Shown here piece after piece: positions 32,425-34,707 of a stretch of 64,000 nucleotides of DNA. The stretch is from assembly GCF_003334765.1 (NCBI RefSeq), contig NZ_QOWT01000013.1. One strand, 5' to 3'. This stretch comes from Escherichia coli (lineage in GTDB: Bacteria > Pseudomonadota > Gammaproteobacteria > Enterobacterales > Enterobacteriaceae). How positions within the stretch are numbered: position 1 is the first letter of the stretch; every line of letters starts with the position of its first letter. A model generated the notes under the pieces. It made no database searches, was not told the DNA's origin, and saw only the letters and a list, made by a program, of their open reading frames with translations. Made by a program: the position numbers and the translations under genes.

Positions 32425-34707
32425 ATGTCCGAGCTTAATGAAAAGTTAGCCACAGCCTGGGAAGGTTTTACCAAAGGTGACTGGCAGAATGAAGTAAACG
32501 TCCGTGACTTCATTCAGAAAAACTACACTCCGTACGAGGGTGACGAGTCCTTCCTGGCTGGCGCTACTGAAGCGACCACCACCCTGTGGGACAAAGTAAT
32601 GGAAGGCGTTAAACTGGAAAACCGCACTCACGCGCCAGTTGACTTTGACACCGCTGTTGCTTCCACCATCACCTCTCACGACGCTGGCTACATCAACAAG
32701 CAGCTTGAGAAAATCGTTGGTCTGCAGACTGAAGCTCCGCTGAAACGTGCTCTTATCCCGTTCGGTGGTATCAAAATGATCGAAGGTTCCTGCAAAGCGT
32801 ACAACCGCGAACTGGATCCGATGATCAAAAAAATCTTCACTGAATACCGTAAAACTCACAACCAGGGCGTGTTCGACGTTTACACTCCGGACATCCTGCG
32901 TTGCCGTAAATCTGGTGTTCTGACCGGTCTGCCAGATGCATATGGCCGTGGCCGTATCATCGGTGACTACCGTCGCGTTGCGCTGTACGGTATCGACTAC
33001 CTGATGAAAGACAAACTGGCACAGTTCACTTCTCTGCAGGCTGATCTGGAAAACGGCGTAAACCTGGAACAGACTATCCGTCTGCGCGAAGAAATCGCTG
33101 AACAGCACCGCGCTCTGGGTCAGATGAAAGAAATGGCTGCGAAATACGGCTACGACATCTCTGGTCCGGCTACCAACGCTCAGGAAGCTATCCAGTGGAC
33201 TTACTTCGGCTACCTGGCTGCTGTTAAGTCTCAGAACGGTGCTGCAATGTCCTTCGGTCGTACCTCCACCTTCCTGGATGTGTACATCGAACGTGACCTG
33301 AAAGCTGGCAAGATCACCGAACAAGAAGCGCAGGAAATGGTTGACCACCTGGTCATGAAACTGCGTATGGTTCGCTTCCTGCGTACTCCGGAATACGATG
33401 AACTGTTCTCTGGCGACCCGATCTGGGCAACCGAATCTATCGGTGGTATGGGCCTCGACGGTCGTACCCTGGTTACCAAAAACAGCTTCCGTTTCCTGAA
33501 CACCCTGTACACCATGGGTCCGTCTCCGGAACCGAACATGACCATTCTGTGGTCTGAAAAACTGCCGCTGAACTTCAAGAAATTCGCCGCTAAAGTGTCC
33601 ATCGACACCTCTTCTCTGCAGTATGAGAACGATGACCTGATGCGTCCGGACTTCAACAACGATGACTACGCTATTGCTTGCTGCGTAAGCCCGATGATCG
33701 TTGGTAAACAAATGCAGTTCTTCGGTGCGCGTGCAAACCTGGCGAAAACCATGCTGTACGCAATCAACGGCGGCGTTGACGAAAAACTGAAAATGCAGGT
33801 TGGTCCGAAGTCTGAACCGATCAAAGGCGATGTCCTGAACTATGATGAAGTGATGGAGCGCATGGATCACTTCATGGACTGGCTGGCTAAACAGTACATC
33901 ACTGCACTGAACATCATCCACTACATGCACGACAAGTACAGCTACGAAGCCTCTCTGATGGCGCTGCACGACCGTGACGTTATCCGCACCATGGCGTGTG
34001 GTATCGCTGGTCTGTCCGTTGCTGCTGACTCCCTGTCTGCAATCAAATATGCGAAAGTTAAACCGATTCGTGACGAAGACGGTCTGGCTATCGACTTCGA
34101 AATCGAAGGCGAATACCCGCAGTTTGGTAACAATGATCCGCGTGTAGATGACCTGGCTGTTGACCTGGTAGAACGTTTCATGAAGAAAATTCAGAAACTG
34201 CACACCTACCGTGACGCTATCCCGACTCAGTCTGTTCTGACCATCACTTCTAACGTTGTGTATGGTAAGAAAACGGGTAACACCCCAGACGGTCGTCGTG
34301 CTGGCGCGCCGTTCGGACCGGGTGCTAACCCGATGCACGGTCGTGACCAGAAAGGTGCAGTAGCCTCTCTGACTTCCGTTGCTAAACTGCCGTTTGCTTA
34401 CGCTAAAGATGGTATCTCCTACACCTTCTCTATCGTTCCGAACGCACTGGGTAAAGACGACGAAGTTCGTAAGACCAACCTGGCTGGTCTGATGGATGGT
34501 TACTTCCACCACGAAGCATCCATCGAAGGTGGTCAGCACCTGAACGTTAACGTGATGAACCGTGAAATGCTGCTCGACGCGATGGAAAACCCGGAAAAAT
34601 ATCCGCAGCTGACCATCCGTGTATCTGGCTACGCAGTACGTTTCAACTCGCTGACTAAAGAACAGCAGCAGGACGTTATTACTCGTACCTTCACTCAATC
34701 TATGTAA
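32425..34707 (+). CDS. pflB: pyruvate formate-lyase (formate C-acetyltransferase 1)
   Basis: 760-aa [18 protein letters not shown]...; C-terminal glycyl-radical motif RVSGYAVRF. Confidence 0.98.

Follow-up and report, generated by a model that had tools for sequence, protein, structure and literature searches.

Long open reading frames (ORFs) in frame -1 of highly expressed genes have been described before. According to Mir et al. (2012, PMC3454372), highly expressed genes statistically tend to carry long frame -1 ORFs, as Silke (1997) had seen, and the same article cites Merino et al. (1994) for frame -1 ORFs and for their speculation on an ancient code. Mir et al. (2012, PMC3454372) also argue that some long alternative-frame ORFs surpass the expectation from codon usage, a statement from which frame -1 of highly expressed genes is exempted. 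Another described case is that of the dnaK antisense ORFs, which are longer than 1.8 kb. They were formerly annotated as 'NAD-specific glutamate dehydrogenase', wrongly gained a Pfam entry (PF10712) and are free of negative selection (Moshensky & Alexeevski, bioRxiv 10.1101/724807). Experimentally supported antisense genes are also on record, among them candidates in EHEC (PMC9927249), laoB (PMC5810103) and two long overlapping genes of P. aeruginosa (PMC8850804). The support presented in these articles comes from RNA-seq and ribosome profiling together with structural elements typical of genes, to which purifying selection is added in the case of P. aeruginosa.

Here we analysed a stretch of Escherichia coli DNA of 64,000 nucleotides (the window; contig NZ_QOWT01000013.1), in which the minus strand opposite pflB is open over nearly the whole length of the gene. 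We assign a probability of about 95% to the reading that this frame of 753 codons is a non-coding shadow of pflB codon bias and not a second gene. The phenomenon is already known (Merino 1994, Silke 1997, Mir 2012), and pflB is a very long instance of it.

Results

Geometry of the antisense frame

The stretch is E. coli K-12-like. Since merely 10 SNPs and no indels separate positions 12425..54707 from strain DH1Ec095, the RefSeq annotation of that strain is transferable to this interval. pflB shows 100% identity to MG1655 and to DH1 derivatives, and a search of 5,426 complete E. coli genomes found the gene in every one. The locus contains the following features:

32425..34707, plus strand: pflB (formate C-acetyltransferase / pyruvate formate-lyase), 760 aa, the real gene, with a CAI of 0.82
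32446..34698, minus strand: antisense shadow ORF of 750 aa, with a TTG start at 34698-34696 and a TAA stop at 32448-32446 (ORF listing)
32449..34707, minus strand: stop-to-stop open span of 753 codons, covering 99% of pflB (stop-free scan)
32446..32448, plus strand: Leu8 TTA, the sole TTA/CTA/TCA codon in pflB, whose reverse complement TAA terminates the antisense frame
34708..34710, plus strand: TTA immediately 3' of the pflB stop codon, whose reverse complement TAA is the upstream limit of the antisense frame

A sequence-only reading of the window had pointed to an open minus-strand frame almost as long as pflB. This was confirmed, both as an ORF of 750 aa and as 753 codons free of stops. 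This frame runs in phase with its host gene pflB, as (34698-32425) mod 3 = 2, and corresponds to it codon for codon as its reverse complement. Given this phase, TAA, TAG and TGA can arise on the antisense strand solely from TTA, CTA and TCA in the sense gene.

Codon makeup of pflB and composition of the antisense product

In E. coli, few genes are expressed as strongly or show as much codon bias as pflB. The three stop-making codons are represented in its 760 codons by 1 TTA, 0 CTA and 0 TCA. Leucine is encoded by CTG in 56 of 62 cases and serine by TCT or TCC in 32 of 36, while all 14 histidines are encoded by CAC. Because histidine is CAC throughout, there is no ATG in the antisense frame and no Met in its product.

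The antisense product consists of 15.1% V, 10.8% F, 9.2% T and 8.1% R, with Met at 0. It had been characterized beforehand as low-complexity and rich in V/T/F/R; the enrichment in these residues stands, but the composition is skewed rather than of truly low complexity.

The Leu8 TTA (32446-32448) is kept as TTA in 53 of the 68 equal-length Enterobacterales orthologs, in a gene that is otherwise nearly TTA-free. The starts of coding regions have a known preference for A/T-rich sequence with weak structure, and this preference may account for the retention of the codon.

Codon bias and the length of the open run

Two reference sets of codon usage were compared. The highly expressed set comprised 30 MG1655 genes (ribosomal proteins, rpoA, tufA and fusA; 5,215 codons) and was independent of the window, and the average-usage set comprised 30 other, ordinary genes of the window. 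TTA, CTA and TCA together made up 24 of 5,215 codons (0.46%) in the former, versus 2.57% in the latter. In tufA, none of the 394 codons is TTA, CTA or TCA and the antisense frame is fully open, and in fusA the open run extends over 528 codons. Across 32 annotated genes of the window, CAI was negatively correlated with the percentage of TTA/CTA/TCA (Spearman -0.85, p = 5e-10) and positively with the fraction of the gene lying under its in-phase antisense open run (Spearman +0.79). The two genes with the highest CAI among these 32, pflB (0.82) and rpsA (0.81), are also the two with the longest shadows.

When the codons of PflB were resampled with highly expressed usage, 3.85 antisense stops were expected, the probability of one stop or fewer was 0.10 and, for this one gene, that of an open run of at least 752 codons was 0.024. 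Resampling with the average usage of the window gave 15.5 expected stops and a run of at least 752 codons in 0 of 20,000 trials (P < 5e-5); a hand calculation from the same codon rates places the chance of the open run at average usage at about 6e-8. The open run is unremarkable under highly expressed usage and far beyond chance under average usage. What counts against the codon-bias reading is that full openness is still a 2-3% event per gene under highly expressed usage. Shuffling the synonymous codons of pflB itself yielded in-phase runs of 559 +/- 110 codons versus the observed 752 (p = 0.03), a length reached because the single TTA sits at codon 8. The remaining two antisense frames of pflB are ordinary, with runs of 144 and 39 codons.

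We observed no extra avoidance of the stop-making codons relative to the other minor Leu and Ser codons, neither in pflB, where the ratio is 1:6 against 24:82 in the highly expressed reference (Fisher p = 1), nor in the 80 Enterobacterales orthologs, where a ratio of 325:713 represents, if anything, an excess (0.46 versus 0.29 in the reference). The explanation originally put forward, namely that the strong codon bias of the sense gene removes antisense stops, is backed by the phase of the frame, the codon counts, the correlation with CAI, the resampling and the synonymous breaks described below.

Other antisense shadows in the window

Further open frames lie opposite other genes of the window:

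22809..23948, plus strand: shadow opposite rpsA, 379 aa, GTG start, in phase; stop-free over 22290..23945, 552 codons
43848..44804, plus strand: shadow opposite dmsA, 318 aa, GTG start, in phase; stop-free over 43752..44801, 350 codons
8802..9629, plus strand: shadow opposite mukB, 275 aa, ATG start, in phase by hand arithmetic; stop-free over 8772..9626, 285 codons
10761-11696, plus strand: stop-free span of 312 codons; the minus strand opposite holds a 441-codon frame (10341-11663), probably mukF
41447-42367, plus strand: stop-free span of 307 codons, opposite dmsC/dmsB and spanning their boundary
50029-50907, plus strand: stop-free span of 293 codons, opposite ftsK and equal to the ftsK in-phase run
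50911-51603, plus strand: stop-free span of 231 codons, opposite ftsK

The lengths given earlier for rpsA (379 aa), dmsA (318 aa) and mukB (275 aa) are exact for start-to-stop ORFs, and the rpsA shadow is bigger than first stated when its 552 stop-free codons are counted. rpsA has a single TTA/CTA/TCA codon among 557. The phases of these three start-to-stop ORFs were obtained by hand arithmetic from the coordinates, and the rpsA and dmsA spans also match the per-gene in-phase runs.

Conservation of the frame across species and strains

Eighty Enterobacterales pflB orthologs with 89-100% protein identity were compared, 68 of them of equal length. The number of antisense stops per ortholog ranged from 1 to 20 across the 80. 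Within the equal-length set, the frame is open in 16 of 68 and broken by synonymous changes in the other 52; the stops fall at 75 different codon positions, and of the 98 sites that are Leu or Ser in E. coli PflB they affect 59. Median dN/dS against the 68 orthologs, calculated by the Nei-Gojobori method, was 0.07 in the sense frame as opposed to 2.0 in the antisense frame, and identity to the orthologs was 76% for the antisense product versus 94% for PflB.

The frame is also broken within the species. Of the 11 E. coli strains sampled, 2 carry a synonymous CTG>CTA change that interrupts it at one or both of the following sites:

32722-32724, plus strand: Leu100 CTG>CTA site, pflB codon 100 (358-360 in the strain sequence)
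34387-34389, plus strand: Leu655 CTG>CTA site, pflB codon 655 (2023-2025 in the strain sequence)

Among 5,412 matching records, the CTA haplotype was present in 261 for Leu100 and in 286 for Leu655, both counts being lower bounds, as they come from exact matches to 63-nt haplotypes. Among complete E. coli genomes, about 5% or more carry an interrupted antisense frame. These CTA alleles can be regarded as natural 'knock-outs' of the antisense frame. Among the E. coli strains we counted 79 variant codons, 73 of which are synonymous in the sense frame and 5 in the antisense frame. In these alignments selection does not maintain the open frame, and the conservation of the ORF and its product is no more than the sense gene imposes. 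Two of the checks that had been suggested for this locus point the same way: antisense stops do arise from synonymous differences in pflB, both among other strains of E. coli and in most other Enterobacterales, and dN/dS is about 2 in the antisense frame versus 0.07 in the sense frame.

In the same alignments, pflB codon 198 (33016-33018) is CTG (Leu) in K-12 and TAC (Tyr) in 7 of the 11 strains, a three-base difference, and codon 94 (32704-32706) is CTT in K-12 versus TTG in 8 of the 11. Such multi-base differences are unusual in so conserved a gene.

Translation and transcription signals

The antisense frame contains no ATG. Its possible starts are 17 in-frame GTG/TTG codons, and in the first 15, counted from the 5' end, no AGGA, GGAG, GAGG or AAGG was detected 3-18 nt upstream. 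The claim that the frame has no RBS context is borne out by this lack of an SD-like motif before the 15 checked starts and with the missing ATG. Likewise, no consensus promoter-like site was found on the minus strand within 32300-35000, nor any minus-strand -10 hexamer with a match of 5/6 or better inside pflB.

Antisense transcription at this gene has been reported. Table 2 of Raghavan, Sloan & Ochman (2012, PMC3419515) names just 17 genes, pflB being one of them, whose antisense RNA begins at the identical homologous position in both E. coli and Salmonella. For pflB the TSS depth is 79 in E. coli and 214 in Salmonella; the article itself regards most antisense RNAs as transcriptional noise. 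The pflB antisense strand is not transcriptionally silent. However, an antisense start somewhere in pflB is evidence of some transcription, not of translation, and it leaves the open frame unexplained. In the literature on pflB overlapping genes and antisense RNAs we found no published report of translation antisense to pflB, and a survey of antisense overlapping genes in E. coli (10.1101/2020.11.18.388249) does not include the gene in its main text.

The pflB-pflA intergenic region (34711-34900) is rich in hairpins, the pflB terminator included. RNase III cleavage between pflB and pflA, near the pflA promoter, has been reported to stabilise the pflB transcript (PMC5371410).

Homology searches and miscalled proteins

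The antisense product matched no NCBIfam family at E <= 0.1, and the comparison with Pfam gave nothing significant (best E = 0.037). A search against 5.8 billion proteins returned 26 matching clusters without Pfam domains, the named ones being 'hypothetical' or 'uncharacterised'. An independent protein family for the product was considered and rejected, as these 26 clusters are free of domains and the two that were inspected both shadow PFL genes. One of the matches is ESA_02442 of Cronobacter sakazakii ATCC BAA-894, a 783-aa 'hypothetical protein' (1501-3852 in the examined record) that lies antisense to that organism's own pflB. The entry persists in GenBank and UniRef as an annotation artefact. 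On a metagenome contig, a called protein of 764 aa is the shadow of a PFL 61% identical to PflB; here the gene caller chose the wrong strand (1339-3795 on the plus strand versus 1330-3750 on the minus strand) and the real PFL went uncalled. Three small upstream 'genes' on this contig have no Pfam match and may be similar miscalls.

Discussion

We propose that the open frame opposite pflB is a by-product of the codon usage of the gene. Translational selection in pflB has probably swapped nearly all TTA, CTA and TCA codons for CTG and TCT/TCC, and with the sole leftover TTA at codon 8 the antisense strand has no stop between the pflB stop codon, where the frame opens, and codon 9. The CAC-only usage of histidine, part of the same bias, eliminates antisense ATG. 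The richness of the product in V, F, T and R is likewise the complement of favoured codons, AAC giving GTT (Val), GAA giving TTC (Phe) and GGT giving ACC (Thr).

Could the frame nevertheless be a true antisense overlapping gene encoding a protein of up to 750 aa, as proposed in EHEC and Pseudomonas? The extreme length of the frame speaks for it, as do the antisense transcription somewhere in pflB that Table 2 of PMC3419515 lists as conserved in Salmonella and the annotation of an equivalent ORF as hypothetical in a few assemblies, such as ESA_02442 in Cronobacter sakazakii. We nonetheless consider it highly improbable, as the frame has no ATG, no SD motif at the 15 checked starts and no promoter-like site, while dN/dS in the antisense direction is about 2 and the frame is broken in 52 of 68 orthologs and, through the natural Leu100/Leu655 CTA alleles, in no fewer than 5% of E. 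coli genomes. In addition, the stop-making codons are avoided no more than other minor codons, the product has no match to a protein family in Pfam or NCBIfam, and pflB is absent from the main text of the survey 10.1101/2020.11.18.388249. From the sequence features we infer that the frame is probably untranslated. A weaker version, in which part of it would be translated from the antisense transcript of Raghavan et al. (2012) into a non-essential, lineage-restricted protein or 'proto-gene', seems to us just as improbable. If it were true, new genes could arise de novo from the open frames that codon bias creates in highly expressed genes.

The same transcript could instead be a non-coding regulatory antisense RNA made from pflB, the open frame being incidental. 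Its TSS at an identical homologous position, with depths of 79 in E. coli and 214 in Salmonella (PMC3419515, Table 2), favours this possibility, but our scans revealed no strong minus-strand -10/-35 site and the authors of PMC3419515 themselves deem most antisense RNAs transcriptional noise. Moreover, such an RNA would not explain a stop-free frame of 753 codons, for which codon usage already accounts, and we hold this explanation to be very unlikely. Hardly conceivable is that the frame arose by chance alone, or is a relic of both strands having coded in ancient times, independently of present codon bias. The relic has in its favour the ancient-code speculation of Merino et al. (1994), as quoted in PMC3454372. 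Chance is excluded at average usage by the 0 of 20,000 resamplings and by the hand-calculated value of about 6e-8. Against the relic, shadow length tracks CAI gene by gene and the frame decays in lineages and strains that use CTA, TTA or TCA; this is what a present-day compositional effect, rather than a conserved relic, would produce.

A 750-aa protein translated from within a central fermentation gene would be remarkable, but all the sequence and comparative evidence points the opposite way. Our results call for caution with antisense ORFs of great length that face highly expressed genes: codon bias is expected to produce them, and at times they are miscalled as genes.

Compared with the known systems, the pflB shadow shares with the overlapping genes of EHEC (PMC9927249), laoB (PMC5810103) and P. 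aeruginosa (PMC8850804) that it is a long ORF antisense within an annotated gene. It differs from these genes, as their reports describe them, in having no translation signals and no selection, and in being unconserved even within E. coli. The resemblance to the dnaK antisense ORFs (10.1101/724807) goes further. Both exceed 1.8 kb, the host gene is in each case conserved and highly expressed, gene finders sporadically report either one as a hypothetical protein, and both show a Ka/Ks pattern without purifying selection on the antisense product. The dnaK ORFs, however, have given rise to a Pfam family of their own, whereas the pflB shadow has only 26 clusters of miscalled proteins, and they are reported to be slightly resistant to synonymous change (10.1101/724807), of which the pflB shadow gives no sign. 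The closest counterparts are the frame -1 shadows of Merino et al. (1994) and Silke (1997, Gene 194:143), as presented in PMC3454372, with which the pflB frame has in common the in-phase position, the biased host gene and the avoidance of TTA, CTA and TCA. As with those shadows, the length of the pflB ORF is reproduced by highly expressed codon usage; there is no substantive difference between them and the pflB frame, which is just a very long one.
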